A program made the translations under genes and the position numbers. From Macrostomum lignano (Eukaryota), in NCBI GenBank assembly GCA_002269645.1, contig NIVC01000870.1:62001-126000 (forward strand): 64,000 bases of DNA. Direction: 5' to 3'. The notes under the pieces were generated by a model that did not search any database, was not told the DNA's origin, and saw nothing but the letters and a program-made list of their open reading frames with translations. Position 1 is the first letter of the stretch, and the number at the start of each line of letters is the position of its first letter. Of the stretch, positions 16,306 to 34,981 are shown in pieces.

Positions 16306-16309
16306 TGAC

Positions 16310-16690
<381 letters not shown>

Positions 16691-17197: not shown

Positions 17198-17404
17198 ATG
17201 TCTTTCGATGCCAAACTACTGGTTGAGAAGTTGGATAGTTTCAACTACACTGTCTGGAAGTTCAAGATGAAGAACGTCCTGATGGAGCGAGAACTTTGGG
17301 AAGTTGTTGATGGTACAGAGACACTTGCTGAGGACGCGACCAACGAGGTCAAAGTTCAGTTCAAGCGGCGTGCGAACAAAGCCCTAGCGACTATCGTATT
17401 GGCT
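17198..17404 (+). CDS. gag: Copia gag N-terminus (69 codons), truncated by Polinton insertion
   Basis: MSFDAKLLVEKLDSFNYTVWKFKMKNVLMERELW...KALATIVLA continues in frame into VADSQIHLIEDAETPKEAW at 34988 once the insert and one TSD are removed. Confidence 0.92.
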
Positions 17405-17785
17405 AGTAGTAGGGAAAAAGACGCTTCTAGACCCAGAGCACTTTTTTAATAGCAGTTTTAAGGGTCTAGAGGGGGGACACGAGGGGGTAACTAAAAAACA
17501 CATCTAAACACCCTTAACACATCTAATCACCCTTAATCACCTACAACCCCCATAATCACCAAAAAAGCAATATAACCCTTTCTTATAACACCCCTCGTGT
17601 CCCCCCTCTGGAACCTTATAAACGGCCATTAAAAAAGGTCTGATCTAGAAGCGTCTTTTTCCCTACTACTACTCTACCCAACACATCCAACACTTCCAAC
17701 ACTTCTAACACTTACAATACTTCTAACACTTCAAATTCTCTATAACCCCTCGCACGCGCCGCAGGCGCGAAGGGTCTTTTTCTGT
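17405..17785 (+). repeat. Polinton left TIR (381 bp)
   Basis: Reverse complement of 34601-34981 with ~2 mismatches in the aacacttc repeats. Confidence 0.95.
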
Positions 17786-17793
17786 TATAAAAA

Positions 17794-18108
17794 ATGAACC
17801 GAGTTTACACCTTTTCTGTTAGTGATACTTTTGAGACTGTTGCTAAAAATGCAGAGATAATAAAACAACATATTTTGAATGGAATAATTGATGAAGTTTA
17901 TTTAAAGTATGATGATAAGCACGACCTAAAACTTTATCCATTAGAGTTGGATGGGATGTATGATTTAGAACAAGAGGGTGAGTTAATATTTCAACTTGGA
18001 GATTATTTAAATTCGGATGATTGGGAGGTTCGTTCAGTCGATTCCAACTCAACAAATAGCTCATATGAAACTAGTGATTCTGAGAATGAAATTGAAATTT
18101 TTATGTAA
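17794..18108 (+). CDS. Polinton hypothetical acidic protein (104 aa)
   Basis: ORF with TAAAAAATG start context immediately inside the TIR. Confidence 0.65.
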   Translation: MNRVYTFSVSDTFETVAKNAEIIKQHILNGIIDEVYLKYDDKHDLKLYPLELDGMYDLEQEGELIFQLGDYLNSDDWEVRSVDSNSTNSSYETSDSENEIEIFM

Positions 18109-18111
18109 AAA

Positions 18112-18336
18112 ATGAACTATTACTCTATAACAGAAACGACATTTATTGTGAAAAATATATATAAAAAAATGAAGGTAAATTATTCCTATATCGGAAATGT
18201 GCCGATTAATGAACTTAATGAAAATTTAAGTTTGATATCTGTTGAACAAATGTCAATAATAATATTAGTAACAATAATAGTAATAATATTGTTTTTGTTT
18301 GTTATAAAAAATTTACTACCCTGTTGCCTTAAGTAA
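18112..18336 (+). CDS. Polinton small membrane protein (74 aa, C-terminal TM helix + CC)
   Basis: IIILVTIIVIILFLFVI hydrophobic run; TAAAAAATG start. Confidence 0.6.
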   Translation: MNYYSITETTFIVKNIYKKMKVNYSYIGNVPINELNENLSLISVEQMSIIILVTIIVIILFLFVIKNLLPCCLK

Positions 18337-18346
18337 TTGTTCAAAC

Positions 18347-19925
18347 TTAGTTCGCAGACATTAGCTGGTTCTCATAAAAAGAACCTAATATTTCTTCACC
18401 ATCCTTATCAGCAATTATATAGGTTGTAGGATTGGTATTTAAAACTTTACTGATAGTGAATTTCTCACTTATTTTCCAATATCCTTTTCTTCCCTTTTCA
18501 AACTTATCTTTCCATTTATAGATATAAACAGAATCACCAACTTTAAAATCTTTAGTTTTCTTTTTTTCAAATTCTCCAAAAGTAACTTTAACGTTTTCAG
18601 GATTGTTATAAGCTTGTTGAGGAGTCATCTTTATTGCCGAATGATATGAATTGTTATAATCTTTCACGACGTCTGGTAATATTTTTACCCACTTTTGGTT
18701 TCCATTAAGACTAAACTGAAACCACAATTTCTTACCTAAAGTTCGATTAAATCTTTCAATTAATGCATTTTTGCTTTCTCCATAAATAGAATAAATTTTA
18801 TTAATATACTCCCCATTCGCGTCTTTTTTCCTTTCTTGTCCTTTTTCAAAATGATATAATTTATACATATGAGGATTGTAAAATTCTTTTCCCTCATCAA
18901 CACACAAGCGTTCGCTTTTTTCATCAAGACTTCTAAAAGCATTAGCAACATCCTCTCCCTTTTTGGATTTCAAAGGAACTGCCCACGCGTATCGAGTAAA
19001 ACCATCCAATATGGTTAAGATATATTTATATCCACTATCAATCGGCATCGACATTAAATCAGCATACCAAATTTCATTCTTTTTGAAGTTCATGATTTTT
19101 CTATAAAATTTAGGTTTTCGATATTCTTTATGAAGAATCTTTGCCTTATCAGAACTTAACCCACTGCCACCTAATAGTAAACACTCAACACAATTATTTC
19201 CATGTTGATTGTAATTAATTCCCAAACCAAATTTAACTTTAGATTGCAGAATCTTTTTAACCATCCACCTAGTTAATCTTTGGCCTACTGACAAGCCTTG
19301 CAAGTTATCTAATCCTTGAATCATTTTTTGATCGGCTTCATGTTTTAATCTTAATGCTTCCTCGGGTGAGTTCTTATCAGCATCTCTGTATGCTAAGTCA
19401 TGATAGTATGCTAACCAATCAATACCGTTAATGGGAATTGAATCAGGTTTTGGAGTGTCATCAGGATTTAATCTCAAATCTAGCCTAGTGCCGGGTAGTT
19501 TGCCCTCTATCTTTCGAAAGAGGCTGGAGCACACCTTAAGCGGTTAAATTACCGCCCATCTCCGTCTGCTCTCTGAACCTTCTCCTTATATTTAAATACT
19601 TAGGAGCTTGGCTGCGCATTGCCACCGTGTCTTCAAGCTTGTTACCGTTGGGAAGAGGAGTTACCTCTGTTCCTTCAAAAGATTTCTCAATTGAAGTGGT
19701 ACTTGAAGCTGTATGACGGGTTTCACGCAATTTGAAGATGTCGCCACAAATAGTGACTAGCAAGGACATTGCCTTCCTCACTCAGGCCACGGACTAACCT
19801 GTGAAGTTCATTGATGGAAGGTGCAGTTCCCCAGTATACCTTCCAGTAGTAAAAACGCTTGGTAAGCTTGTTAATCCTTTTTGAACATCTAACAATCCGC
19901 CTTCAAACACTAATTGGTCGTTCAT
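18347..19925 (-). CDS. PLA2 (parvoviral VP1u/PLA2X-like)-retroviral-type integrase fusion; exon 1 19925-19797 (43 aa), exon 2 19495-18347 (382 aa); 425 aa after removal of the group I intron
   Basis: Splicing restores ELHLPSMNFTG-PGTRL...PINGIDWLAYYHDLAY (PLA2 Ca loop and HD dyad). Integrase DDE: IWYADL, LCVDEGKEF, LIERFNRTL. Exon 1 ATG has the element's TAAAAATG context. Confidence 0.88.
19496..19796 (-). ncRNA. Group I self-splicing intron, IC1-like, 301 nt
   Basis: P1 CAGGU/GCCUG with U.G at the 5' splice site; P2.1; P3 CAUCUUC/GGAGAUG; J3/4 AAA; P4 UGCGUG/UGCGCA; P5abc with GAAA tetraloop; P6 GCC/GGU; P6a CUCCU/AGGAG; J6/7 UCA; P7 GAGAGCA/UGCUCC; P8 GGCGGU/ACCGCU; J8/7 UAAGGUG; P9 with GAAA loop; P9.0 AG/CU. 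Confidence 0.9.
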
Positions 19926-20475
19926 TTTTAATAGCCTCAAAAATACATGATAGCACCAATTGTTTTGCAAATTCTTCGATGGTTGGTTGTTTAACTTTTT
20001 TATAGCGATTATCTTCACTAGTTAAGTATCTTTTATTTGTCCAATGTTCCGACTTTATCCTTTGATCTTCATCTTTATAACTAAACGAAGAAGCAGGGAT
20101 GAAATGATCAATATCTATCGATCCAGTATAATCTTTTGAAACATAATATTTTCTTGTGAAATTTAACCAATCAAAAAAGAATTCTTTTGTGCAACCAAGA
20201 TATGAGATATAGTCCTTATCATTAAAATTTTTCAACGCCCAATTTATTCTATTTCTAATTAAAACAATATGTTTGTAATTTTCATCAGTGTGATACTTAT
20301 TTTTTCTATATTCATTCCATTTATCTTTATTCTTTTTTATCCACATAATAGATGAAGTATTATGACAAGATCGACAATCATTTCTAAATTTTTTTGAATC
20401 ATTTCTCCAACAAAAAAATTCTTTAGTCATAGGCTTTTCATCTTTACACTTATTACAAATCTTTGTTTCATCCAT
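19903..20475 (-). CDS. Free-standing HNH endonuclease with N-terminal zinc finger (190 aa)
   Basis: CNKC...CRSC, then LGCTKEFFFDWL and IDIDHFIPASSF...HWTNKRYLTSEDNRYK (D-H..N..N), resembling giant-virus/phage HNH families. Confidence 0.8.
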   Translation of the reverse strand: MDETKICNKCKDEKPMTKEFFCWRNDSKKFRNDCRSCHNTSSIMWIKKNKDKWNEYRKNKYHTDENYKHIVLIRNRINWALKNFNDKDYISYLGCTKEFFFDWLNFTRKYYVSKDYTGSIDIDHFIPASSFSYKDEDQRIKSEHWTNKRYLTSEDNRYKKVKQPTIEEFAKQLVLSCIFEAIKNERPISV

Positions 20476-20502
20476 TTTATAAAAAACAAATTTAATAATT
20501 AA

Positions 20503-21171
20503 TTAAACTCCCGTATGTCCAGCAGCTTTCGCAGCAGCTAAAACAAGTTTTCGCGGAGTTTTAAATCCTTCTCCAACAGCCGGTTTGTTATTTATAGAAC
20601 CAACAATTCTTTTATACAACCCAGTATTTTTAACACCTCTTGTTCCTAACTCATCATAAAAAATTTTAGCACTTACTAATTCATCTCTAGTATATAATTC
20701 CGGGTCAAATTTTACATTCGGGTTCATAACAATATTAAATGCTCCACCCAATTCTCTATATAGATCATCCTGATTTTTATCAACTCCACCAATTCGATAA
20801 TTACCATTATCTAAATCTGTCACAGCAATACTAGGTGGTGTTCTCGGAAATTCAACAACTTCACCCCGTTCTGCATCCCTAATCTCATCAACTCTCCTTA
20901 CCGCTTGAGCAGCCTCATAAGTAGGCGGCTCATCTAAAATTTCATCCTCTTTTGGTTCGGTATTCTTAGCAATTTTTTCCAGAAGCTCTTTATCTGTTTT
21001 TTCTAGTTCACTAATTTTCCCCGTAATAGGATTAACAAAAGGAGCAGCAAATCTTTCACCCGCTAATTGTATTCCTAACTTTCTTTTTTGTAAATTTCTA
21101 ACAAAATCAGAATATCTTTGCTTCTCTTTATAAATCGCTAACTCTCCATCAACGTCCATAAATTGACTCAT
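20503..21171 (-). CDS. Polinton conserved-type hypothetical protein (222 aa)
   Basis: Intact ORF with TAAAAAATG start; N-terminal coiled coil; family not assignable by eye. Confidence 0.7.
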   Translation of the reverse strand: MSQFMDVDGELAIYKEKQRYSDFVRNLQKRKLGIQLAGERFAAPFVNPITGKISELEKTDKELLEKIAKNTEPKEDEILDEPPTYEAAQAVRRVDEIRDAERGEVVEFPRTPPSIAVTDLDNGNYRIGGVDKNQDDLYRELGGAFNIVMNPNVKFDPELYTRDELVSAKIFYDELGTRGVKNTGLYKRIVGSINNKPAVGEGFKTPRKLVLAAAKAAGHTGV

Positions 21172-21205
21172 TTTTTAACATAAAAAACTTTTTTAACTTA
21201 AAAAA

Positions 21206-22681
21206 ATGGCTGAAACAAAAACTATATGGAGTGATAAATTTCATTTCAAAAAGCACCGCCAGTATATTAATGAGGTTAGGGCAAGAGATTTGAATTATAC
21301 CCTACCAACAAGTGATAATTCAAATAACTTTACTACCGGAACGGTAACTTTTGACATCGGCGCAACCAACACTATATTGGATATGAAAAATGCGTTTTTC
21401 CGTGTTAGATGGTTGTATACCAAAAATGATGGAACTGCTCTTGCTGCTGGTGATATCGCAGATCGTTCTGGAATAATAATAGAAAATGATTGGTTTTATA
21501 AATGTTTTTCCCAAGCACAACTATCAGTTAATGGAGCCGAGGTTGAGACATCATCAAACCCCGCAGAGATTAATGGAGTTTTGAAACATTTAAATTATAC
21601 TTATTTATCAAAACAAGTTGGTGATAATGTTGGGTGGATGCCTGATAAGGGTAATGGACAAGCAGTAGTTTTCCCTAATGTACAAAACGTAGCAGGTGGC
21701 GCAGATGCTGCAGCTCTTGTTGCTTTTCTTAATACCACTATAGTTCCAGTTGTAACCACCATGACTAATACAAAAGATATTAATACTGGTTTTATTGATC
21801 GTCAGAATAAATTCCCAGTCGCGGTTTTAACCGCTGCAACCGCATATGAGCAGGACTTCTCAATCTTTCCGCTATTTGGGTTCTTCTCACCAAATCGGGT
21901 ATGGAAAGGATTAAAATTTGGGATACAGTTGCAAATATCTGGTGGATATCAGCCTAGGATACTTTATGGAACATCGGTTTCAACCGATATAGCAGTTCGT
22001 ATAGATTCAATTCAATTAGTTGTACCAACTATTGAGGTAACAGCCCAACTTTTAAAACACATCGATAATCAGTTAACCCATGATCAGGAAATATTTTATT
22101 TGAATCGTCGACATTTTATGCGAACCATTAATAATAACCAGGATTCATTCCAGTGGCAGATAATTACATCAAAACGTCGGGTGAGATATATTTTTGTTTG
22201 GTTTAAAATAACAAACAGAAGGAGTAAAAGAGCAAATGGGGATTTATATTGGATTCAATCAGGCACCATAGCAGAACAAGCAGCCACCGCAACAGACAAT
22301 GCGGCTTCAGCTATTAACGAGTTTAATGTTCAGAATATCCGCCTGCAGGTTGATGATCAATATTATCCGGTTAAAGACCCTCTTAATCTAAACATAGCAA
22401 ATAATAATGTTAATGATTTTATAAAATATTATCAAGATTATGTCAAAAATGAAGCGTATGCCGTCCCTCAGTACACACCCACAGAGTTTCTAAACATTCA
22501 TCCAGTGGTTGTTTATGATCTAACGGCACAGAAAGAAAACGTAGCCAATGTTGGACTTAATTACATGTTAGAGATTAATAAAACCGGCAATCAGGCAATC
22601 GACGCCCACGTATTGTTTCTAGAGGAATATATGTCAATTGCTAAAGCTGATGGCACGATTGTTCGTGACGCGCCAATTTAG
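21206..22681 (+). CDS. Major capsid protein (double jelly-roll, Polinton PY/hexon-like), 491 aa
   Basis: Size, beta-rich pattern (FSQAQLSVNGAEVE, RVRYIFVWF, NIRLQVDDQYYP, PVVVYDLT) and position before ATPase and penton. Confidence 0.85.
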   Translation: MAETKTIWSDKFHFKKHRQYINEVRARDLNYTLPTSDNSNNFTTGTVTFDIGATNTILDMKNAFFRVRWLYTKNDGTALAAGDIADRSGIIIENDWFYKCFSQAQLSVNGAEVETSSNPAEINGVLKHLNYTYLSKQVGDNVGWMPDKGNGQAVVFPNVQNVAGGADAAALVAFLNTTIVPVVTTMTNTKDINTGFIDRQNKFPVAVLTAATAYEQDFSIFPLFGFFSPNRVWKGLKFGIQLQISGGYQPRILYGTSVSTDIAVRIDSIQLVVPTIEVTAQLLKHIDNQLTHDQEIFYLNRRHFMRTINNNQDSFQWQIITSKRRVRYIFVWFKITNRRSKRANGDLYWIQSGTIAEQAATATDNAASAINEFNVQNIRLQVDDQYYPVKDPLNLNIANNNVNDFIKYYQDYVKNEAYAVPQYTPTEFLNIHPVVVYDLTAQKENVANVGLNYMLEINKTGNQAIDAHVLFLEEYMSIAKADGTIVRDAPI

Positions 22682-22700
22682 TTAAATTATTTCTTTAAAA

Positions 22701-23459
22701 ATGGTAAAGGCAAAACACGATAGAATATTTCCAAATGATCCTTTTCTTTGTTTAGTAATCGGAGGATCAGGTAAAGGAAAAACACACTTTGTTTACGATT
22801 TATTAACAACAGATGGAATGCTAGACTATAATAATTTAATAATTTATACTAACAAACCTAAAATAAAATATTATGAATTTCTTAAACATGGATTAAAAAA
22901 CAAATTAAAAAAAGATATTATGTTTAGAATGTTAAGAGCATATGAGCAATATGAGGACGATGATGAACCAAGATTTACACTTGATGACATTGAGGATTTA
23001 TGTAAAACAACTGCAAAAGAACCGGAAAACATTAACAACCGAGCCCCAACTGTTAAAGTAGCAACCCAATTATCCTATGATCGAATTCCACAACATGATA
23101 AAACACTAATTATTTTTGATGATTGTATTAATGATAGTGATCAAGAATTACAAAAGGAAATTTTTGTTAGTGGTAGAGGAGATGGAATTGGAGCTTTTTA
23201 TCTTACTCAATCCTTTAGAGATTTAGAATCGATTATAAAAAAGAATGCTAGCTGTTGTGTAATGTTTGATTTAGATAGCTATGATTTACAAAATATACAC
23301 GCTAGATTTAATCCGGGGTTGGATATAAAACCATTTAAAAGTATGTGTAAAAAAATTTGGGATGATAGCCAATACAAACATATTTATATCAATCCGAGGT
23401 TAGAAAGGAAACATAGAATTTTAAAAGATCTTATAAAAGAGGATAACGAGGAGGAATAA
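22701..23459 (+). CDS. A32/FtsK-like genome packaging ATPase
   Basis: Walker A GGSGKGKT, Walker B LIIFDD, GRGDGIGAFYLTQS. Confidence 0.93.
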   Translation: MVKAKHDRIFPNDPFLCLVIGGSGKGKTHFVYDLLTTDGMLDYNNLIIYTNKPKIKYYEFLKHGLKNKLKKDIMFRMLRAYEQYEDDDEPRFTLDDIEDLCKTTAKEPENINNRAPTVKVATQLSYDRIPQHDKTLIIFDDCINDSDQELQKEIFVSGRGDGIGAFYLTQSFRDLESIIKKNASCCVMFDLDSYDLQNIHARFNPGLDIKPFKSMCKKIWDDSQYKHIYINPRLERKHRILKDLIKEDNEEE

Positions 23460-23475
23460 AATTCCCACTATAAAA

Positions 23476-24261
23476 ATGGCTACAAATTTAGACACTATAA
23501 AACAATTGGTAGATCGAACTAATTCAAAATATAGTACAACCTTACAGTTTATAATGACAACCAGTGAACAACGTATTCAATTGCGCAACCCGTTACAACT
23601 CGATCAAAGCCTAAGTTATCAAATAGGTTTGATATTATTTTCAGTTTTTAACATGCCTCAATTAATTAATGCAACAAATAATCAATTTAGATATTCTAAA
23701 GATTCCGGAGCCAATTGGACAACATTTAGCGTTAACCCAGGAGCATATTCTTATACCGATTTGAATGCTTATATAGAAGGAGAATTAACAGCTAATGGAG
23801 ATTGGGTAGCAGGCGCGATTGTTATAGGAGTTGATTTACCATCTGGCAGATTCACACTATCACTAGGATCCGGATATCAGGTTGATTTCACAATTGCAAA
23901 TTCACTCAGAACCATACTCGGATTTAATTCCCGAATCGTTACCACATCAAGCACCGGCGACACAGTGGGAAATATTGAGGGTGGAGTTAATACAATTAAT
24001 ATAACAACCGACATTTCAAACGGTGGTTATATAACAGACGATAATGGGGTTTTGGTTCAACGTGGAATTATTTATTCAATCCCATTTCTTGCTGTTCCAA
24101 TTGGAGAAAAAATGATTGTTTCACCCCAAACCCCCATATATTATCCTTTAAATCAATATAGTGTTCAATCAATTTATATTAGGATTGTAGATGAAAGCGA
24201 TAGATTAATAAGTTTTGGCGGACAGTCAATAACGGTAATTTTACGTATAAAACAGGTTTAA
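23476..24261 (+). CDS. Minor capsid protein (penton, single jelly-roll), 261 aa
   Basis: PGAYSYTDLN, LRTILGF, INITTDI, YYPL..SIYIRIVDESDRLISFGG..VILRIK, typical of Polinton pentons. Confidence 0.85.
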   Translation: MATNLDTIKQLVDRTNSKYSTTLQFIMTTSEQRIQLRNPLQLDQSLSYQIGLILFSVFNMPQLINATNNQFRYSKDSGANWTTFSVNPGAYSYTDLNAYIEGELTANGDWVAGAIVIGVDLPSGRFTLSLGSGYQVDFTIANSLRTILGFNSRIVTTSSTGDTVGNIEGGVNTINITTDISNGGYITDDNGVLVQRGIIYSIPFLAVPIGEKMIVSPQTPIYYPLNQYSVQSIYIRIVDESDRLISFGGQSITVILRIKQV

Positions 24262-24307
24262 AACCGCCCCATAGGGGCGAGGACATCGTCCGTTTCCCAT
24301 AGTAAAA

Positions 24308-24484
24308 ATGGGTAACCATTCTGGAGCGTTAAAAAAACAATCAGATAAAGTTCAAAATGCAAAGGATAACTATGAAATCGAACTAACAAAATTGAAACAA
24401 CTTCAAGCAGAAAAAATTCGAAAGGAACTGTTAAAATCCAAACCTACGAAACTAACCAAAACCAAGAGTTTTTCAGGAACATAA
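24308..24484 (+). CDS. Small basic coiled-coil ORF (58 aa, MGNHSG...), absent from the ORF track
   Basis: TAAAAATG start; fills the gap between penton and protease; stop abuts the next start. Confidence 0.6.
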   Translation: MGNHSGALKKQSDKVQNAKDNYEIELTKLKQLQAEKIRKELLKSKPTKLTKTKSFSGT

Positions 24485-24485
24485 A

Positions 24486-24923
24486 ATGACTTTGAATTGG
24501 CAGTTATTCAAACAAAGATATGGAACAGACACAACAAGCAATATTGAATTAACAAATTGGGCGCGGCAGTTAAAAATAAAACCATTCAGATGTGTTATGC
24601 GAGATGAGATCAAAGACTTACCACAATATGGATCATACATTGTCAATATAGAAACAACAAAAGAAAATGGTGTTCATTGGTCAGCTCTTTATTCCAAACC
24701 CAAACTTGTTTATTTTTTTGATTCATACGCGCTTCCTCCGTTACAGGAAATAAAAGACAAATTTAATCATACTAAAAATCGTTTATGTGGAGATCATCAC
24801 GAACAATTTCAAACATTTGATAAAAGTTATTGCGGGCAAGCGGCGTTGTATTTTTTATATAAAATTAATAATTCTAAGGAAAGACCCGAAGACTTTAAGA
24901 ATATTTTAGACTCTATAAAATAG
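24486..24923 (+). CDS. Adenain-like cysteine maturation protease
   Basis: GVHWSALY, YFFDSYA, QFQTFDKSYCGQAALYFL (His/Asp/Gln/Cys). Confidence 0.93.
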   Translation: MTLNWQLFKQRYGTDTTSNIELTNWARQLKIKPFRCVMRDEIKDLPQYGSYIVNIETTKENGVHWSALYSKPKLVYFFDSYALPPLQEIKDKFNHTKNRLCGDHHEQFQTFDKSYCGQAALYFLYKINNSKERPEDFKNILDSIK

Positions 24924-24933
24924 ACAGTAAAAA

Positions 24934-26805
24934 ATGATATTTTCTGGAACACCCTCATGGAACGGAACAACAAGTACTGGTGGTGGTACATCTGGTGGAA
25001 TAAGTGTTACATTCGGGGATAACCGATATATTAATGAAGATGAAGGTTATAAAAAAACTGAAATTGATAATAAACTAAATTTAAAAAGAAATGTTGCAGA
25101 TTCCTATACCAAAACTGAAATCGATACTTCATTAAATTTGAAAAGAGATATTAGTGATTCATATACAAAAACAGAGGTTGACACCGGGTTAAATTTAAAA
25201 AGAGATATAACCGATTCTTATTCTCGAACTGATTCTGATTCGCGTTATGTTCAAACCACCGCAACCGGAACCTTAGATATGGACAACAATCGAATTATAA
25301 ATGTTGCAATTACAACGAATAACTCGGTAGTTGATAAGAACTATGTCGATAATCAGGTGGGTAGTCGTAACGGCAATATCAATATGAATAATTTTAAATT
25401 AACAAATTTATTATTTGGAACAGAGGCCACAGACTCGGTCAATTTAGGACAAGTCAACGCTCGAGCTAATGTAACCGACGCCGATATTTTTTCCACGCCG
25501 CTTACATCAAATACTTCAAATCCAGATGTTGTTCTTACAGCATCCGAAAATACCAACGATGCTTTTCGAGTTGGAGATGGAAGCCTTGCGACACAATGGT
25601 CACCAAATACCGGAACCACAACCAATATGGAAATTCAATTTGAATTTTTAGGTTATAATCGAAGAATAAATGAATTAAGAATTACAGGCAGCGCAACAAT
25701 TGATATTCCATCGGGATGGTCGGTTCGTGCAAAAAATGTTGCTACCGATGCATGGACGGTATTACGAACGTCGGGATCCCCAATTCAAGCAACTTCATTA
25801 GCATTAACTAATTTAACGGTTAATTTTTGGAAATATTATAGCGTTTTATTCCCAACTGGTGGTACCGCTACACAGCCTATCGAGGTTCGTCTAATACAAT
25901 TATTTGAACACCGAGTTGAAATTCAAGATCTTAATTGGCCGAATCAAATACTTTCTGCAACCCCGCGAGCGTACGTAGATCAGGTAGCAACCCCAACATC
26001 AAATGGGAGAATGTCTGCTGGTGATAAAAATAAATTGGATAACATTCCCGCGATTGATGCTGCATTATTCGAGACAGTAATTTGCAATTGGACTGGATAT
26101 CAAAATCCAACAACCGCCGGAGATATATATCCAGTTGGTTCTTTAATTGGCGACGCTTCTTATATCGATTATCAAAATGGTGCTAGAATTACTCGTGAAA
26201 CTGGTGGAGTAAGTGGTGCATTACAATTTAATTTCACACATTTTCAAAATATATCTGCGTCTTTCTTTTTCAGAGTTGCTAATGCTACAGGAGGTGGTGC
26301 AGATGCGGTTTGGTTTTATGCATATTGTCACGAACGACCAACAAGCGAAGGCGGGACGGGTTTAGCAACAGACGCTGGATTGATAGTTTTTGCAAGTGAG
26401 TGGCATGATAAATTTGGCATAGTTTGGAGCTCTAAAAAATCAGACGGATCAACCCGCGCGGATGTTAATACTGACGCGGATCAAACTGTAGACTATACAA
26501 ATATTGATAATGGTGATTGGCATCTGTTTGAAATAAATATTCTTAATCAAAGGGTTTGGTATCGATTACAATCATACAATGTCTCAGCCGATTCTTATAC
26601 CCTCATTGGGCAGAACGTTTTCACATATGATAGTGGAACTTGGGGAACTTTGGATAAAACGGGAACTCTTATGGGTTTTGGTGCTCGAACTGGAGGAGCA
26701 GATGCTGCACATTTTATTCGTGGCGCTGCCGTTTGTGGTAGCACATCATTTGGTTATATTTTTCCATCTACCGCATATTTGGAAAAACCGCCTGTAGCAA
26801 TATAG
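24934..26805 (+). CDS. Fibre/receptor-binding-like protein (623 aa)
   Basis: YTKTEID..LNLKRD..DS repeats x4, KNYVD motifs, discoidin-like middle (DG...TQWS) and lectin-like C-terminus (FFFRV...GGADAVWFY). Confidence 0.6.
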   Translation: MIFSGTPSWNGTTSTGGGTSGGISVTFGDNRYINEDEGYKKTEIDNKLNLKRNVADSYTKTEIDTSLNLKRDISDSYTKTEVDTGLNLKRDITDSYSRTDSDSRYVQTTATGTLDMDNNRIINVAITTNNSVVDKNYVDNQVGSRNGNINMNNFKLTNLLFGTEATDSVNLGQVNARANVTDADIFSTPLTSNTSNPDVVLTASENTNDAFRVGDGSLATQWSPNTGTTTNMEIQFEFLGYNRRINELRITGSATIDIPSGWSVRAKNVATDAWTVLRTSGSPIQATSLALTNLTVNFWKYYSVLFPTGGTATQPIEVRLIQLFEHRVEIQDLNWPNQILSATPRAYVDQVATPTSNGRMSAGDKNKLDNIPAIDAALFETVICNWTGYQNPTTAGDIYPVGSLIGDASYIDYQNGARITRETGGVSGALQFNFTHFQNISASFFFRVANATGGGADAVWFYAYCHERPTSEGGTGLATDAGLIVFASEWHDKFGIVWSSKKSDGSTRADVNTDADQTVDYTNIDNGDWHLFEINILNQRVWYRLQSYNVSADSYTLIGQNVFTYDSGTWGTLDKTGTLMGFGARTGGADAAHFIRGAAVCGSTSFGYIFPSTAYLEKPPVAI

Positions 26806-26822
26806 AAATATTTCTATATAAA

Positions 26823-27149
26823 ATGGCTTTTAGTAGAACCCCATCGATGCGGCAAAATAATGTTATCATTCCAATTTCTAAACAAGAATCAAATATAAAA
26901 ACTTTTAAATCTCATACGCGAATTTTATTTAGTGGAGTGAATGTTCAGGATAACAAGAAACTTCAAGAATTAATTAAATTATTAAAAAATCATATTATAC
27001 TTCAAGAGTTTTGGAAAATTGGATTTAAATGGGAGAAAAAAGAAAGAATAACTCCAATACAATACCTATTAAGCTCGGGACAAATCCCCAAAGAGCGCGG
27101 GGAATTCATTTTGGTGCTATTAAAAATAGACGAGAATGTCGGTGTCTGA
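26823..27149 (+). CDS. Polinton hypothetical protein (108 aa)
   Basis: TATAAAATG start, intact ORF. Confidence 0.65.
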   Translation: MAFSRTPSMRQNNVIIPISKQESNIKTFKSHTRILFSGVNVQDNKKLQELIKLLKNHIILQEFWKIGFKWEKKERITPIQYLLSSGQIPKERGEFILVLLKIDENVGV

Positions 27150-27663
27150 AGCAGATAAAAGGGAACGTGACCATTTTAACCAACGTAAAGGTCACATGTT
27201 AAGTAATGTTGATCGTATTAACTATGATTATGATTTATATGCTAAAAAAGTAAGAAGAGTTTCAAATCATATCAGAAATATGGATTTCTTCAATATTGGA
27301 TTTGGAAGCTTATCAATGTTATGTGTAATCGTTTTAGGTGTTTTACAATCTATTCCAACTCTTAATTTATCTCAATTATTTTTAGGTATTTCAATTGGCT
27401 CAATATCAGGTTTTGAATTAATTAGAAATTTATCAATACTTTTAGCAATTAAATTATATCTTAAAAAAAGAAAGGAAAAATATAAATCGTTAAGAGATGT
27501 TGCCAAACAATATAAAAATCAGTTATATTTATATGTGCAAAAAATATTGGATGACGGAGAGATAACAATTCACGAGTTATCAACCGCGGTTGAATTATAT
27601 GAAAAATATTTAAAAGATCGAAATAGAATTTTAGATGTTGAAACTTTTACCGATATAGAATAA
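27136..27663 (+). CDS. Polinton membrane-associated helical protein (175 aa, two hydrophobic segments)
   Basis: Hydrophobic hairpin followed by ILDDGEITIHEL...YEKY. Confidence 0.7.
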   Translation: MSVSEADKRERDHFNQRKGHMLSNVDRINYDYDLYAKKVRRVSNHIRNMDFFNIGFGSLSMLCVIVLGVLQSIPTLNLSQLFLGISIGSISGFELIRNLSILLAIKLYLKKRKEKYKSLRDVAKQYKNQLYLYVQKILDDGEITIHELSTAVELYEKYLKDRNRILDVETFTDIE

Positions 27664-27788
27664 AAAGAATTACGTTTGGACAAACCCAAAGCTCCACCTA
27701 TAGATACATTAGGTATTTACGAACCTGAAAGTATTGGTACTGGGGTACAAAGCCCGCGAACCGGTAGTGTGGTAGAACTTAATGTTGT

Positions 27789-28301
27789 TTAATCATGAAT
27801 TGTCATGTGTACAAAGTACAATTTATTTAATGCATACGTTATATATTCTTCCCAAAGTGGTAACTCTCTTGTGATCCTAGGTTTAAATTTTTTATCAATA
27901 CATAAAAATTCCAATGACTTTTTCAGTAACATTTCGTTAGGTATGTTACCTATCCTTATAAACTTTGTATTCTCTCGCATAAGAAAATTAAAATAATATC
28001 CAACTAAAATTAAAATCCTTTTGGAGTCTTTCGAACTTAATCCCTTTCCTTCATTTAAATGGAAAAAGTTGTTATATAAATAAACATTATTTCCGGGTAT
28101 TAAAATTGGATCAGATATGTCTCTTGTAAGATTTCTTAAAATTGTGTTTTTAAAATAGTAATATGAGTTTTCAATCTTTTTTGTTTTTTCAAATTGATAT
28201 ATTTTAGAGCATGAATAACACATATGATATATATCTCCGTTTGCTGTTTGAGCTCTATGCATAGTCACATTACATTTTTTACATACATAAATGTCTTTCA
28301 T
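27789..28301 (-). CDS. Polinton hypothetical protein with N-terminal CxxC...CxxC (170 aa)
   Basis: CKKC...CYSC, intact ORF. Confidence 0.6.
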   Translation of the reverse strand: MKDIYVCKKCNVTMHRAQTANGDIYHMCYSCSKIYQFEKTKKIENSYYYFKNTILRNLTRDISDPILIPGNNVYLYNNFFHLNEGKGLSSKDSKRILILVGYYFNFLMRENTKFIRIGNIPNEMLLKKSLEFLCIDKKFKPRITRELPLWEEYITYALNKLYFVHMTIHD

Positions 28302-28327
28302 TTTTTTGTTATTTTTTTGATTAAAAA

Positions 28328-28672
28328 ATGGAGAGCTGGTTCAAAACCGATTCTAATGTGATTAATTATCTCACACCCAATATGTTGGAGAATAAAGAAT
28401 ATAATATTATATGTTTGAGACAGGTTAAATTTATTGGACTTCAATCGATATTTTTACAATTAGATGGTCAAACAATACTATGTTTAAGTGGGAATGATGT
28501 TAAAAATTTTCCAGTTTTAGTTATTAATAAACCTAAAGCATTCATTATAAAATACAGTCTGGAGGGTGGGTTGCAATTTAAACTAAAACAAACAAATAAT
28601 AAAAAGAGTGACAGGACTGTAAAATTGGCTTCCGTTTGGGAGGCTGATGAAAATGACTACATTTTTTTATAA
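28328..28672 (+). CDS. Polinton hypothetical protein (114 aa)
   Basis: TTAAAAAATG start, intact ORF. Confidence 0.55.
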   Translation: MESWFKTDSNVINYLTPNMLENKEYNIICLRQVKFIGLQSIFLQLDGQTILCLSGNDVKNFPVLVINKPKAFIIKYSLEGGLQFKLKQTNNKKSDRTVKLASVWEADENDYIFL

Positions 28673-29027
28673 GAAAATGGAGACAATAAAAATCCTTATC
28701 ACTAAAGAGCGTGAACATAAAGATATTAATAAAAAAATAAATATAATTTTATCTCAGAAATATAGTGATTATGGTGATGAAATGTTTCCCATCCGATATG
28801 AGTTGGATAAAAAAATGCGTTTTATAAAAGCTGCTATTGCTTATGCTGAAACAGTAATTGAAAACGAAATAGATAGATTGGTTAGAAGAATAAAAGTACT
28901 TAGGAAAAAAATAAAAGAATGTTTAAGTTACCCTGCCGACTGTGAGGACAATTGGTGCTCAATAAAATATGAAATCGAAATGGATATTATGCTTAAACAA
29001 TTACATGCTTTGGTTTTTTTCAAGTAA
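28647..29027 (+). CDS. Polinton hypothetical protein (up to 126 aa)
   Basis: Intact ORF; start may be the internal ATG near 28677. Confidence 0.5.
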   Translation: MKMTTFFYKKMETIKILITKEREHKDINKKINIILSQKYSDYGDEMFPIRYELDKKMRFIKAAIAYAETVIENEIDRLVRRIKVLRKKIKECLSYPADCEDNWCSIKYEIEMDIMLKQLHALVFFK

Positions 29028-29180
29028 TTTTTCTGTTAATCTCATCCAGTTATTCAAGACTTTTTCCTTGTTTAATTTTTTAAGTTCTTTTGGAAATGTT
29101 GCGGTATAATTATCTATATCTTTTTCATATTCTAGAAATGTATTATATTCACATTCACATTCGGATTCACAATCACAATC

Positions 29181-32100
29181 CTAATAATAATTATTTATTG
29201 CCTCTTTGTATTCATTATATTTGCTTATTATATCTTCTTTTTGTTTTTTATCTTTTATCATATTTTTTATCTCTTCTTTTAAACCATATGGATATGTTTT
29301 AATTTTATCATCTAAATATCTTTTATCATCAAATGGACTTAATGTTTTTTTATCTGTCTCGATGACAAACATCTGATGCTTATCTGAATTTAATCGATAT
29401 TGTGGAGCATGATAATTTTCAATTGTATTAAGGTAATCTAAAAGTACGTTTTTATAATCATCAAATGTTATCTTTTTAACTGCTGCCCTTGATACCCCTT
29501 TTATTTTTTTTACCTCTCCCTCCTGTCCTAAAACTTTAAATGCATAGCATTTTGATCTTATTGCTATAAACTCAGTTATGATTTTGCTATTTAATTCATC
29601 TTTCATTTTAAGTACAACTTTCTTATTTTGATTCGATTTTAAGGGATGGTTATCCGGATAGTCTGATGTGTCCAATGTATCCTTAATTTTTTCCATATCT
29701 TTATAGACATCTAGTGTTTCAACCTTAAATACCAAACTGTCGGTGTCCGCATATATTGGATAGTTATCTGGCCATGTTTTATTTATAACATCATAATAGT
29801 ATTCATACATTACTAGCTTTGCATAATCTAAAACAACCATTCCAATAAATATTGGTTTAAGAAATTTTGTTGTTTTATTTCTCATATGTATTCCCATAAA
29901 GTTATCATTAAATTTTATAAAATATTTAAAGTTAGGTTTTGAGAAATATTTCTTTGCTTTATCAATATCCTTTTCTAAATGGAATTGGGTTCTATCTCTA
30001 ATATTTTCAACCGTTTTTCCATAAAAAGCATTATTCATTAATTTCCAATAATCTTTCTCAAAATTTGTTTTTGACATCTGTCTCTGATTTGAATTAAAGT
30101 CAATATATTTAGCTAACCAATCTTCCTCAATAAACGATATTGTTCGATGTACTTTAGACACTTTTAATCCCTGCTTTTCATAAAATTGTAGAAGCTTATA
30201 ATGCACTACATAGTTTTTCTTATCATGTAAATTTAATATTAATTTTTTTGTTGCTAGGTGTTTTGCATTATCTACTTTAAGATAATCTTTTTGTGTTTGT
30301 GATAAATCATCTTCATTAACTGAACAATGCTCTGGAGCTAAAGGATATTTATATGTTTTTGCTTTTGCTTCCCGAGTATATTGCAAATCCACTTCTACGA
30401 TACAGCCCCTTCCTTCGGGAATATTTTTGTAATAATCGGGGTCGTCTTCCCATTGGAAATCAGCTATTGGTAATTTTTGTTTCATACAACCACCGTATAA
30501 ATTGTTTGCATCTAGATATAATACATATGATGATTTTTCTTTTTTATTATAATTTGGTAGATATTTATTATTTACTTTAGTATATCTATCTCCTAGTACC
30601 CCCGAGAATCCACCACGAATTCCTCTCTCAATCATTAACAACATATCATGATCAGTTAGTAAATCAATCTCAACATCTGTGTATTTCAAACCGCAAGCCC
30701 ATGTTAATCCGGGTGCACTGAAACAATAAGCTGGATCAATTTTAAAATTCTCATAAGTATGATTCCTAAAGTTTTCAAATGCATCAGCTAATAGGAGAAC
30801 ATCTGCTTTAAGATATAGATTATGATAATCTTTAAATGTTTTACAATTAAAATATTTCCATACTTTTTGAGTGTGTTCATAATCCGATTCACTTATATTT
30901 GTTTGTGATAATGTTGAATAAAACTTTTCTATGGGTGGTAATTCGGTATGAAAAAATACGTCTTCAGATGTTACATATTCATATGGATAGATGCCCTTAC
31001 GAGTTAATAGCATTAGTTCTTCCTCGGATAGTTTTTCCTTTTTGAAACGATTCAATAGTATTGGAAAGTTTTTCTTTACTATTTCTAAATCCCACGGTTT
31101 TGGAACAAGTGATGAAACAACATTTGCTAAAGATGTTGATAAGAATCTCAAGGAATCTAGAAAAACTAGATGGGAGTATTTCTTACCATATGTTATTGAT
31201 ATGTAATTTTCTGATGTTTTAGGTAACATATTTATTTCATATTCATCCTTTCCTAAATGAAGCAATTCTCGAACTAGGAAATGAAAATCATATCCGGGAC
31301 CATTATGAAAAAATACTGGTATTTCCTTACATCCTTTTCCTTCTTTTGCGTTACATGATCTACATGCTGCCCCTCGATAAATTCCCGTTAGATGACAATG
31401 TTCTCGTATCTTATTTTTCTTACTTAAATATCTTTTGCACATATAACAATTTGTTGCATTTTTATAATTGTCTCTATCCTTATCTGTCATAATAATATTT
31501 TTTGATAATTTATCATATTGATTTTGAATATATTCAAATGCATTTACTAATGATTCTGCCATGTGCTTAGCTGCATCTTTACCGTGGTAAGTAATCATCC
31601 TTGATTTAAATATATGATCGGCTACGGAGTGTACATATATACAATAACTATTAGGAAACTGTTGCGCTAATTTTTTTGTGCATTCACCATCAGATACTGT
31701 CTGTGGTTCTTTTAAGGGAACATTTGTTGCTTCAAAATCAGCATATATTACTATTGGTTTTTTAATTGCCATATAATGTTGTTGGAACATTAGGGTTGCA
31801 TCTTCAGATGCTGGCATTACAGCATTAGTAAATTTGTGATCTAAACAAAATCGTTGATGATTTTTAAGAGCTGTTTCATCCTTTTTAAATGTGAAACAAT
31901 TTCTACATAGTGGATATCTATTTCTATTTTCTCTTAAAAAGGAACTAATGTCCTTTATGTATATATAATGTGTTTCATTTTCACGCTGCATGTACAAAAG
32001 GTCGATTTGATCTGGTGCTGTTATATCTGTTGCTGGCTTAACAAGATAACACCTTTTCTTATACCATTCTGGATCGGTTGAAATTTCTTCTAGATCTTTT

Positions 32101-32933
32101 GGTTCTTCAATTGTAAACACATTAATATTTAAACCATTCATTTTTTCAATCTTATATATATCATCTATTGCTACTGGGTATGATATGTTTTTCATTATTA
32201 TTTCATTCTCATATTGTTTATAATTATATATTTTATTAATGTGTGATTCTACTTGATTGTGATATTTATGAATTAATAAACACCATAATAAACATTTATT
32301 ATCTTTATTGTTTGGATTTATGATCATTGGTGATTTAAATTTGAGATTCATATGTGATCGTCCTTTAAGAATTTCAATAGGAACAATCTTTACTATTGCT
32401 GAATTACAGGATGCAAATATAAACCCGGATCCGTTTTCTGTCATCTTATCTATCCATTTATCAAACTCAGCTTCTATTTGATTAAATTGATTATTGTAAT
32501 TTCCCATTGATAGTAGTGTTTTATATGATTCTTGTGAAAAGTTATTTATTACTTCAATTTCTGAATTTGCATTAAGAATATTTGGTTTTTTAAATTCTGT
32601 TTCAACTTCTATTTTATACTTAATTGGCTGTCGTTTGTTATTTGGCCTTATAGTGTAATTGTTTAATATGATCTTTAATTTATCTTTCATTTGTTTAAAA
32701 TATTCTTTATAATTTGTATTTATATCTATATCTATATATATTACTTCAGCTCCATTTTGTACTTGTGGTTGGGGGTTATCAATATCATTTAATTGTCTTT
32801 CTAAACGTATCTCATTTTCTGCCCTAACTCTAGCTTCTATTTCAGCCCTATCGGCAATTCGTTGTGCTTCGATTTGAGCTATTAATTGTGCTCTAAGTTC
32901 AGGGTTGTCGATTTGAGCTAAAATTGCTTCCAT
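29181..32933 (-). CDS. pPolB: Protein-primed family B DNA polymerase (1250 aa) with inserted endonuclease VII-like Zn module
   Basis: Exo I YADFE, Exo II FHNGPGYDFH, Exo III YLKADV; pol A YLDANNLYG, pol B KLMNNAFYGK, pol C YADTDS; CYMC...EHCHLTG.YRGAAC.SCN. Confidence 0.97.
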   Translation of the reverse strand: MEAILAQIDNPELRAQLIAQIEAQRIADRAEIEARVRAENEIRLERQLNDIDNPQPQVQNGAEVIYIDIDINTNYKEYFKQMKDKLKIILNNYTIRPNNKRQPIKYKIEVETEFKKPNILNANSEIEVINNFSQESYKTLLSMGNYNNQFNQIEAEFDKWIDKMTENGSGFIFASCNSAIVKIVPIEILKGRSHMNLKFKSPMIINPNNKDNKCLLWCLLIHKYHNQVESHINKIYNYKQYENEIIMKNISYPVAIDDIYKIEKMNGLNINVFTIEEPKDLEEISTDPEWYKKRCYLVKPATDITAPDQIDLLYMQRENETHYIYIKDISSFLRENRNRYPLCRNCFTFKKDETALKNHQRFCLDHKFTNAVMPASEDATLMFQQHYMAIKKPIVIYADFEATNVPLKEPQTVSDGECTKKLAQQFPNSYCIYVHSVADHIFKSRMITYHGKDAAKHMAESLVNAFEYIQNQYDKLSKNIIMTDKDRDNYKNATNCYMCKRYLSKKNKIREHCHLTGIYRGAACRSCNAKEGKGCKEIPVFFHNGPGYDFHFLVRELLHLGKDEYEINMLPKTSENYISITYGKKYSHLVFLDSLRFLSTSLANVVSSLVPKPWDLEIVKKNFPILLNRFKKEKLSEEELMLLTRKGIYPYEYVTSEDVFFHTELPPIEKFYSTLSQTNISESDYEHTQKVWKYFNCKTFKDYHNLYLKADVLLLADAFENFRNHTYENFKIDPAYCFSAPGLTWACGLKYTDVEIDLLTDHDMLLMIERGIRGGFSGVLGDRYTKVNNKYLPNYNKKEKSSYVLYLDANNLYGGCMKQKLPIADFQWEDDPDYYKNIPEGRGCIVEVDLQYTREAKAKTYKYPLAPEHCSVNEDDLSQTQKDYLKVDNAKHLATKKLILNLHDKKNYVVHYKLLQFYEKQGLKVSKVHRTISFIEEDWLAKYIDFNSNQRQMSKTNFEKDYWKLMNNAFYGKTVENIRDRTQFHLEKDIDKAKKYFSKPNFKYFIKFNDNFMGIHMRNKTTKFLKPIFIGMVVLDYAKLVMYEYYYDVINKTWPDNYPIYADTDSLVFKVETLDVYKDMEKIKDTLDTSDYPDNHPLKSNQNKKVVLKMKDELNSKIITEFIAIRSKCYAFKVLGQEGEVKKIKGVSRAAVKKITFDDYKNVLLDYLNTIENYHAPQYRLNSDKHQMFVIETDKKTLSPFDDKRYLDDKIKTYPYGLKEEIKNMIKDKKQKEDIISKYNEYKEAINNYY

Positions 32934-33017
32934 TTTATAGAATAAAATTTATATAATGTTTGAATTATTGATTTTTTAATTTTGTGTTTTTGGTGTCCAG
33001 ACCCTCCCCCCAGGAGC

Positions 33018-34005
33018 CTATTCGAGATCTGCTTTTGGTAATAGCAATCCATTGCCCATAACGTTTGAATTTAAGAAAATTCCTGAACCTGCTTTTGGTC
33101 GCATTTCGAGATATAATCCGCTTCCGTCGTGTTTTTCAATGATATTAAAATCTTTTCCTAATTTATTAAAAATTTTCTGAACAGCTGGTCTAAAATTGGA
33201 TCCAATATTGTCAAAAAATCCTTTAGCTTTCTCACCCGTTTTTTCTAAAGTTTGGCCAAATTCATGTAGTTTATCTGCGACAACTCCACTTCCTTGGGTC
33301 GTTCCTTTTAGTACCAAACCGTTGCCATTTAACAGTAAACCATTCCCGCGATTTGTTCCTTGCAAGAGTAAACCTTTTCCGGCTGCTAACCTAGCTTCTG
33401 CATTTCTTTTTTGCTCTGCTGTTGCTGAGCTACTATTAATGGTATCAATAAGTTTCTGTTTGAATTGTGCATCCTGTGTTATTTGCTGTCTTTGAAATTC
33501 AGCATCTCGTTTAGCTTTTTCATCCGCAGCTTTTTTATCATTTACTGCTTTTGTGATTCCAGCTGCGCCCCCTGCTATTCCACCAGCTGCTCCTATTCCT
33601 GCAAAAATTATTGGCAATAAAGTTGCAAGTGGAAGTATGCCTCCTTGTTTTGCTTTTAATTCTGCTAACTGTTTTCGTTATCATGAATTCTTTTACCTGC
33701 TAAACCGGCTAGGCCTAAAAGAATTGGTAAAATAGGTAACAATCGTCTTTTTTAGTGTGAGTCTCCAATAAAAATTTTACATCGGAGTCTGTCAGCCTAT
33801 AATTTCTACCATGATTCTTAAAGGATATTGGCCTTCCTTCTTGTGCATATTTTGCAGCAAGTTTAAATGTATTGATATCGTAGTCAAGTTTTTTACCTAA
33901 ACGATCCAATCTTTTTAACATTGTGTGACTATGTTTATTATCGTCTAGATTTAAAGTATCTACAATTTCTCCTATAAAATATAAGCGGTCGTTATCTGTG
34001 TCCAT
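33018..34005 (-). CDS. Core/membrane-lytic precursor protein(s) with GG|L and GxG|L sites; appears to be one ~330-aa gene broken by two -1 discontinuities
   Basis: QGG|ILPLATLLPIIFAGIGAAGGIAGGAAGITKAVN; GKG|L, GNG|L, GSG|L repeats; no in-frame ATG for 33018-33617. Confidence 0.6.
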
Positions 34006-34015
34006 TTTTATATTG

Positions 34016-34414
34016 TTAAAATTTTTTTAATCCTTTTCCACCTTTTATAGTGGTTAACATTTTATTAAAATCCTGAATATCTTTATTACTTATTGGCGTG
34101 GTTTTCGTGGGGGTTTCTGTTGGTTGTGCGGCTTGTGCCAGCTTTAAATCTTTTATTGCATTTATTTGTGAGAGGGTGGCGTTAAAATCTCTCAATTTCT
34201 TTAGTTCTTCTGCCGCTCTAGCTGCTTCAATTCCTCCTTTTACAGCATTTGTTATAGAGCCTGCTGCGGAGCCTGCTTGCCCTATTAGACCCATATTGTC
34301 TTTAACAAAATTCGCTGCTGTTCCAACCACATCAAAAAGTCCCTCACCTCGGTATTCAATTGGGTCTCCTACCTGCAATTCGTTCAGATTTTGCATATGA
34401 GTAACGTGTGTCAT
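34016..34414 (-). CDS. Core protein precursor (132 aa from ATG 34414)
   Basis: RGEG|LFD and GGKG|L putative adenain sites; A-rich start context. Confidence 0.65.
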   Translation of the reverse strand: MTHVTHMQNLNELQVGDPIEYRGEGLFDVVGTAANFVKDNMGLIGQAGSAAGSITNAVKGGIEAARAAEELKKLRDFNATLSQINAIKDLKLAQAAQPTETPTKTTPISNKDIQDFNKMLTTIKGGKGLKKF

Positions 34415-34600
34415 TTTTTGTTCTATTTTTAGTAACAGAAAAAAGAGACGAAGTGGAAGCACAATAGGTTGGGGTAGAATAATAGAACAGTGGGTAGTAT
34501 AAGAAAAAGAGACGATTTATAACTTATGAATGAAACTCTCGCTACCATATATGGTATTATGCCTCCTCTTCATGAATGGGCTAGTATGAAGTTTCATACT

Positions 34601-34981
34601 ACAGAAAAAGACCCTTCGCGCCTGCGGCGCGTGCGAGGGGTTATAGAGAATTTGAAGTGTTAGAAGTATTGTAAGTGTTAGAAGTGTTGGAAGTGTTAGA
34701 AGTGTTGGGTAGAGTAGTAGTAGGGAAAAAGACGCTTCTAGATCAGACCTTTTTTAATGGCCGTTTATAAGGTTCCAGAGGGGGGACACGAGGGGTGTTA
34801 TAAGAAAGGGTTATATTGCTTTTTTGGTGATTATGGGGGTTGTAGGTGATTAAGGGTGATTAGATGTGTTAAGGGTGTTTAGATGTGTTTTTTAGTTACC
34901 CCCTCGTGTCCCCCCTCTAGACCCTTAAAACTGCTATTAAAAAAGTGCTCTGGGTCTAGAAGCGTCTTTTTCCCTACTACT
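34601..34981 (-). repeat. Polinton right TIR (381 bp)
   Basis: Reverse complement of the left TIR. Confidence 0.95.

Follow-up and report, generated by a model that had tools for sequence, protein, structure and literature searches.

An IC1-like group I intron in a nuclear Polinton of Macrostomum lignano and its proposed association with an Eco47II-like nuclease

We show that a Polinton integrated in the nuclear genome of the flatworm Macrostomum lignano, where it is present in multiple copies, carries a structurally intact, IC1-like group I intron of 301 nt without an open reading frame (ORF) of its own (19496..19796, minus strand). The window that was analysed is a stretch of 64,000 nucleotides (contig NIVC01000870.1, positions 62,001 to 126,000), and all coordinates are counted from its first nucleotide. 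The alleles and relatives of the intron suggest that it is part of a mobile system consisting of an intron and a restriction nuclease in the Polintons of an animal nucleus. The full model, in which the intron would be removed by RNA splicing and its homing between Polintons would be driven by a restriction nuclease with a short recognition site, has in our estimate a probability of roughly 0.6. More tentatively, and at somewhat less than even odds, we propose the combination of active ribozymes carried in animal chromosomes by Polintons, homing by a 5-bp enzyme originating from giant-virus restriction-modification, loss of its recognition site throughout the elements, an intron replacing the methylase in protecting the single site imposed by the protein sequence, and splicing with a terminal A in the dominant lineage.

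Results

The host element and its genomic setting

The element spans 17,577 bp (17405..34981) within the gag region of a Copia element. It has the features of Polintons/Mavericks, namely terminal inverted repeats of 390 nt that are 98% alike (left, 17405..17794, plus strand; right, 34592..34981, minus strand), a flanking 6-bp target duplication (17399-17404 and 34982-34987), an rve integrase, which scored just under its profile cut-off (29.6 bits, E 9e-7), and an A32-like packaging ATPase over the cut-off (22701..23459, plus strand; PF04665, E 5e-7). Profile searches of the element gave no match for polymerase and capsid and an E of 0.1 for the protease. An ORF of 1250 aa (29181..32933, minus strand), in which B-family polymerase motifs were seen by eye, is probably a protein-primed polymerase, and it holds an EndoVII/HNH insert (PF02945) of a kind reported in the Polinton polymerases of nematodes and oomycetes (PMC10748475). 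Immediately upstream of the gene that contains the intron is a variable slot (19903..20475, minus strand), which is occupied in the window by an EndoVII/HNH-like ORF of 190 aa and in other copies by an Eco47II-like nuclease.

The animal nuclear setting, which had been claimed in an earlier note made from the letters of the window, was supported by several observations in addition to the integration with target duplication. The assembly contains 86 Wnt matches and 140 innexin matches (let-7 scored below the cut-off), the nearest enzymes to an amylase exon adjoining the Polinton are those of animals, and exon 2 of the intron-containing gene has at least 150 matches in the assembly (150 scored among 494 candidates), which are spread over many contigs, some of them megabase-sized. 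The two halves of the disrupted Copia element (17198-17404 and 34982-38674) keep a gag-pol frame that is open apart from the split, suggesting that the Polinton was inserted recently. The remainder of the window (1-17000 and 39000-64000) contains host exons of a PIP5K-family kinase, Nup35, alpha-amylase, an M1 aminopeptidase and RWD-RING proteins, with long minisatellite arrays between them.

The interrupted gene and the boundaries of the intron

The intron interrupts a gene for a PLA2-integrase at the conserved Gly/Pro boundary of the PLA2 motif. Exon 1 has 43 codons (19797..19925, minus strand) and is followed by an in-frame stop at the start of the intron, and exon 2 has 382 codons (18347..19495, minus strand), which encode the remaining PLA2-like domain and the rve integrase. 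Intron-free alleles of the gene match PF08398, and uninterrupted homologues have the same fusion of a PLA2-like domain with an integrase. The split had been placed correctly in the earlier note, which took the gene for a stand-alone PLA2 instead of such a fusion. The boundaries proposed there, 19796 and 19496, were found to be exact: when the exons were searched separately against an intron-free metagenomic homologue (P0001), exon 1 ended at residue 32 and exon 2 started at residue 33, and in those alleles of this assembly that lack the intron the coding sequence runs unbroken across that codon boundary. G residues in the vicinity were rejected as alternative 3' splice sites, since their use would either alter the reading frame or place the junction within the stem of P9.

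Three of the sequencing runs with assembled contigs were guessed to be RNA, and their contigs, like those of one run of unknown kind, did not contain the exact joint between the exons, which is uninformative because contigs drop rare forms. One contig in the run of unknown kind skips 19496-19860, with unknown letters between. RNA runs were not found among the listed runs that hold the element.

Fold and classification of the intron

The group I identity of the 301 nt was borne out by a covariance model, by the helices and by covariation. A fast scan of the whole window with the gathering setting gave no RF00028 match, whereas the targeted comparison did, with a match at 19806-19505 (minus strand) that covers all 253 model positions and scores 72.1 bits against a family cut-off of 50 (E 9e-18). 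The window copy pairs in P3, P4, P5, P5a, P5b, P5c, P6, P6a, P7, P8, P9.0 and P9. P3 and P7 pair exactly at the coordinates first proposed for them, P7 (19573-67 with 19531-26; 19526..19573) enclosing the 3' strand of P3 and P8. P1 and P2.1 had likewise been proposed, and both are formed, together with P2, in the minimum-energy fold, although the z score of the whole fold was only -2.3. In P1 (19783..19801, minus strand) the end of the exon pairs with the internal guide, with U.G at the 5' splice site, and P2.1 is a hairpin (19742..19760, minus strand) whose loop is the place of an Eco47II-like ORF in the introns of a sister family.

The fold was further examined in an alignment of 19 natural introns, of which 18 are distinct, with the structure drawn from the window row. 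In this alignment 97.7% of the cells are paired and both partners vary in 21 of the 72 pairs, whereas sliding the structure as a control gave 1-3 such pairs and shuffling gave 0/500; since the rows are related, the covariation represents about three lineages. Changes on both sides were located in P3, P4, P5, P5a, P5b, P5c, P6, P7, P8 and P9, so that the P3-P9 core with its P3/P7 pseudoknot is backed by compensatory change. The covariation of P7 with its G-binding G-C pair kept, which had been noticed by eye, holds across the natural copies (17 of 18 rows).

The assignment to subgroup IC1 stands in part. The intron has P2/P2.1, a P5abc extension with an A-rich bulge and a GAAA L5b (19631..19708, minus strand), and a tetraloop receptor in P6a; the P9.1/P9.2 extension and P13 are absent. 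There are just 5 nt between P9 and P9.0, and because this leaves no room for P9.1/P9.2 or P13 we refer to the intron as IC1-like rather than as canonical IC1.

In the genome-wide search all 28 scored RF00028 candidates were above the cut-off, and each of the nine that were inspected directly precedes the same exon 2. At the same site in other copies of the element family, a third intron was found (L063:240-570, L072 and L085; contigs C103, C87 and C486) with scores of 42-43 bits. It has P2, P2.1 and P5abc in common with the window intron and a different core with an IE-like look, and is thus an apparent chimera; its 3' junction is unlike the usual start of exon 2. An alternative P2 sequence found in this third intron is also present in introns of the window's family (L020, L026, L029, L036 and L037), which points to recombination between intron types.

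Alleles of the insertion site

The intron-free alleles predicted in the earlier note are present in the same genome: a pattern search for the uninterrupted site gave 27 exact matches in the assembly, against 6 for the control. Three of these belong to the family of the window element (family 1) and 20 to another (family 2), whose integrase is 59% identical and whose capsid-, penton-, protease- and polymerase-like genes also match those of the window; the other four, on contigs C181, C618 and C1294, represent further element families. Family 2 includes intron-bearing copies as well; the start of their intron is 97% identical to that of the window intron over 37 nt, and its P2.1 loop holds an ORF that reads into the core. 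One site therefore exists in three states in one genome, namely intron-free, with an ORF-less intron and with an ORF-bearing intron. Furthermore, an optional insert of 30 nt in P5c has one and the same sequence in the introns of both families (30/30), although four-fold sites of the integrase agree between the families at only 19 of 46 positions, which suggests a recent transfer of intron sequence between families. An independent metagenome contig (L118) agrees in gene, site, intron type and nuclease ORF.

The terminal base of the intron

P9.0 (19525-24 with 19498-97) and the alignment to copies that end in G together fix the register of the 3' end. This register confirms position 19496 as the end of the intron and places there an A, not the G that is normal for group I introns. 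A terminal A is expected to slow the second splicing step. A natural group I intron that likewise ends in A is Cbu.L1917 of Coxiella burnetii, which differs in being a bacterial rRNA intron, whereas A- and G-ending alleles of the Polinton intron segregate among copies. In the 50 distinct loci nearest to the window (60 minus 10 duplicates; 46 parsed and 4 read), a sample biased by having been picked for likeness to the window, the terminal base is A in 38 and G in 12; it is also G in family-2 introns and in the intron of the metagenome contig. The A-ending and G-ending groups do not differ in the G-binding pair or in the unusual sequence of P7. Exon 2 is open in most A-ending copies, and among 11 A-linked haplotypes (40 copies with open frames) exon 1 has a pN/pS of 0.11 at a pS of 0.24. 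This pattern fits continued splicing of the A-ending copies, and it could also be explained by recombination that joined the A-ending intron to exons that had already been under selection.

As far as splicing is concerned, an alternative is that in the A-ending window lineage the ribozyme is dead or crippled and the intron is passively copied. Elements carrying it would then depend for their movement on complementation by G-ending or empty copies, both of which coexist with it, or on an internal start of the integrase, which could be translated without splicing from an ATG at 19324 in exon 2. In the available text of PMC3984707 and PMC11835236 a terminal G is near-universal, though not absolute, among group I introns, and the window intron departs from this rule, as would be expected of a crippled copy. 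Nevertheless, A-ending introns are the majority of the 50 nearest loci, their core is intact and exon 2 is mostly open, and the constraint on exon 1 also argues against loss of splicing, though recombination could account for it. We regard a crippled intron as unlikely, while taking it as a serious contender.

The Eco47II-like nuclease

The ORF within family-2 introns encodes a protein of ~160 aa that matches RE_Eco47II (PF09553, E 6e-7 to 1e-5). Its structural model has a pLDDT of 92.9; the best solved structure is EcoO109I (Foldseek E 5e-5, TM 0.70; Z 10.7, rmsd 3.1, 158 aligned), followed by AvaII (Z 6.8). Both the Pfam match and the restriction fold are those of an Eco47II-type restriction endonuclease, which is present here as a bare core without an added DNA-binding module. 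By analogy with Eco47II, EcoO109I and AvaII, whose recognition sequences we take to be GGNCC, RGGNCCY and GGWCC, respectively, the Polinton nuclease probably recognises GGNCC, although a fold match at 14% identity does not fix specificity.

The nuclease has 111 matches in the assembly, counted as pieces. In family 2 it lies in the P2.1 loop, and in part of family 1 it is free-standing directly upstream of exon 1, where it occupies the slot of the window's EndoVII/HNH-like ORF (11 loci inspected). The window copy has the intron and lacks this nuclease. The interval before exon 2 was examined for 40 hits to the free-standing nuclease: it is the size of an intron in 37 and shows an empty site in none, and the remaining 3 hits could not be positioned; with only three empty family-1 alleles available, the absence of empty sites among the 37 is consistent with the association but not significant. 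All three of these empty alleles carry the EndoVII/HNH-like ORF instead of the nuclease, and for this reason that ORF was rejected as the main driver of homing; its presence in all of the first 30 loci was forced by the query. The slot (window 19903-20475) thus appears exchangeable, holding the EndoVII/HNH-like ORF, the Eco47II-like nuclease or, in one locus (L086), a third ORF with weak similarity to the upstream gene.

Of the 31 giant-virus loci with a relative of the nuclease (~30% identity), 30 contain a C5-methylase motif near it, which Pfam confirmed in one case. A cognate methylase was found neither near the nuclease in the Polinton stretches inspected nor among the ORFs of the window element. 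Among 184 database relatives, 21, many of them from one cluster, have a terminal tail like that expected of read-through into the core of the intron. In the tree, free-standing nucleases nest among intron-embedded ones with supports of 93/83 and 94/90, but a tree grouping the embedded nucleases together was not rejected (p-AU 0.134), and the nuclease may have moved from the free to the embedded state or the reverse. Clusters of intron-type nucleases (P0009, 30 members; P0018, 9 members) occur on many contigs of 7-65 kb, some of them truncated, possibly from another eukaryote with multi-copy elements of this kind.

Depletion of GGNCC

Because a Gly-Pro codon pair always spells GGNCC, the insertion site of the intron is itself a GGNCC, which the intron breaks. 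Judged within the nuclease-associated families alone, this sequence is strongly depleted: the window element has 1 occurrence where 21.0 are expected (0/200), and none was found in 9.9 kb from family 2, for which 9.8 are expected (0/200). The coding sequence of the window element has 1 versus 14.1 (0/1000) and, when the protein was held fixed by synonymous shuffling, 1 versus 6.1 (3/1000), and the dipeptide Gly-Pro occurs once versus 8.2 expected. The sole GGNCC of the window element, at 31297 within the probable polymerase, is missing, with or without the nuclease, in all three other copies in which that motif was readable, out of nine stretches obtained. For comparison, the flanking Copia element has 2 versus 6.4 (23/500), or 2 versus 4.2 in a second test (42/200), and the host exons have 35 versus 42.9. 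The sequences CTNAG, CANTG and TGNCA are depleted about two-fold in the window element. The giant-virus restriction-modification loci (L087-L117) are also poor in these sites, GGSCC (24 versus 119.6) more so than GGWCC (96 versus 147.8).

Discussion

The comparisons described above suggest a family of mobile introns that spreads between Polintons by homing. At the RNA level, the pre-mRNA would fold and guanosine would attack at the U.G pair, after which the exons would be joined at the terminal base of the intron, here A, restoring the PLA2-integrase. At the DNA level, the driver would be the ~160-aa nuclease of the Eco47II/EcoO109I type, which is presumed to cut DNA. In a cell where elements with and without the intron are replicated together, the intron-free allele would be cut by the nuclease at its only GGNCC, and repair would bring in a copy of the intron, either alone or along with the adjacent nuclease gene. 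The intron would provide self-protection in place of a methylase. A 5-bp cutter could act on intron-free Polintons as a single-site cutter, since GGNCC appears to have been purged elsewhere in the element while being forced at the insertion site by the Gly-Pro codons. The window copy, having the intron but not this nuclease, would be a passenger. Several considerations count against this model. An unconfined enzyme with a 5-bp site would be expected to harm the chromosomes of its host, and 20 sites of family 2 have stayed empty within one and the same genome. The scarcity of GGNCC extends mildly to the flanking Copia element, and three other motifs are depleted in the window element as well. 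With regard to splicing, the terminal A and the internal ATG at 19324 also speak against it. As for the host, the simplest guess is that its DNA might be spared by expression confined to the viral phase or to a compartment.

Alternatively, the nuclease may mainly cut other DNA during the viral phase, such as that of the host, of a helper giant virus or of competing elements, and the intron may be kept because it removes the one unavoidable site, so that its spread would be a by-product. This reading does not exclude homing. It would agree with the closest characterised context of the nuclease, which is giant-virus restriction-modification, with the element-wide loss of sites, which fits strong self-protection, and with the many copies in which the nuclease is free of the intron. 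It accounts less well for the fact that in the inspected loci the nuclease is always in or beside this intron, for the relatives with a tail like read-through into the intron core, and for the movement of intron segments between families; we consider it improbable as the main explanation, if worth keeping in view.

It is also conceivable that the restriction fold reads an extended site, as in I-Ssp6803I, and that homing is of the classical type. Known homing endonucleases use long sites (PMC3943268 and PMC3424549, in the parts accessible), toxicity to the host would be avoided, and the scarcity of GGNCC could then have another origin, for instance past passage through hosts with giant-virus restriction systems, whose loci are themselves poor in GGNCC. 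However, the nuclease is a bare core of ~160 aa without a DNA-binding module, third codon positions near the site differ between the families, and the depletion reaches Gly-Pro dipeptides, and for an extended site we see little likelihood. An assembly artefact or a contaminating element from a co-sequenced protist or virus, which might be suspected because the Polinton is AT-rich relative to its flanks and its nearest relatives are environmental sequences, has a negligible probability in view of the target duplication that marks its integration into a Copia element, the animal genes adjoining it, the 150 or more matches on contigs of up to megabase size, and the single organism code shared by all 20 listed sequencing runs (7 studies) that hold the element.

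Homing by a short-site restriction nuclease, the reading that we prefer, has partial counterparts in known systems. In the accessible text of PMC6083498, collaborative homing is described for F-CphI and the psbA intron of cyanophage S-PM2, in which a free-standing nuclease gene adjoins an intron that blocks self-cleavage; the Polinton system differs in being eukaryotic, in having a restriction-type PD-(D/E)xK nuclease and in containing free and intron-embedded forms in one genome. I-Ssp6803I is likewise a PD-(D/E)xK restriction fold encoded in a group I intron, but it has a 17-bp site and belongs to PF11645 (PMC3424549, as far as available), whereas the Polinton nuclease belongs to PF09553 and is accompanied by evidence for a short site and for site avoidance. 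With Eco47II, EcoO109I, AvaII and the restriction-modification pairs of giant viruses it has in common the Pfam family, the fold and the catalytic-type motifs; unlike in type II restriction-modification, it is linked to an intron and has no methylase beside it in the inspected stretches. In the available portions of PMC3943268, PMC3984707 and PMC3424549, six homing families with long targets are distinguished and Eco47II is listed only as a restriction enzyme.

With respect to the intron, the novelty claimed in the earlier note was narrowed by the literature. RF00028 introns of ~300-380 nt have been reported in integrated genomes of Polinton-like viruses, restricted to the protists Paulinella, Desmodesmus and Rhodomonas; these occupy a short gene that precedes the capsid gene, and the accessible text names no nuclease (PMC12220804), whereas the window intron has an animal host, lies in the PLA2-integrase gene and is associated with empty alleles and a nuclease. 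Nuclear group I introns are otherwise described as confined to the rDNA of fungi and protists (PMC9223047, part available). The Tetrahymena-type IC1 introns among them resemble the Polinton intron in the U.G of P1, the G-binding pair of P7, the GAAA loop of P5b with its receptor in P6, and ORF insertion in the P2 region, whereas the Polinton intron is in a protein gene of a mobile element, lacks P13 and the P9 extension, and ends in A in most near copies. Group I introns of animals are known from placozoans, corals and sponges and are mostly mitochondrial and of type IB4 (PMC11835236, available text); the Polinton intron differs in being integrated in the nucleus and IC1-like. Sources on nucleases or homing in Polintons and related viruses (PMC10748475, PMC11296320, PMC8502044, PMC12768974 and bioRxiv 10.64898/2026.10.13.758929) contain no such animal intron in the portions available. 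Our literature search found no report of a group I intron in animal nuclear DNA, the part of the novelty claim that stands, and no description of this nuclease mechanism, with the qualification for both that supplements and subscription papers could hold unremarked hits. Scans of IMG/VR with the PLA2-integrase gave no relative, and a scan with an intron motif gave 122 loci with distant group I cores that had no match to the PLA2-integrase, the Eco47II-like nuclease, the polymerase, the capsid or the ATPase. In some viral contigs (L120-L199, for example L120, L155 and L175), several group I cores lie near one another and in the neighbourhood of ORFs related to the EndoVII/HNH-like ORF of the window.

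Because the intron occurs in many copies in the chromosomes of an animal, the function of a group I ribozyme in the animal nucleus, and within a protein-coding transcript, becomes a testable matter. The natural A- and G-ending alleles of one intron offer a ready comparison for the chemistry of the 3' splice site. If the nuclease is indeed a homing enzyme with a short site, it would break the rule that homing targets are long, and it would reveal a route from restriction-modification to intron mobility. Furthermore, homing would imply encounters and recombination between these Polintons in the form of free DNA, a point of relevance to the question of whether animal Polintons are active viruses.
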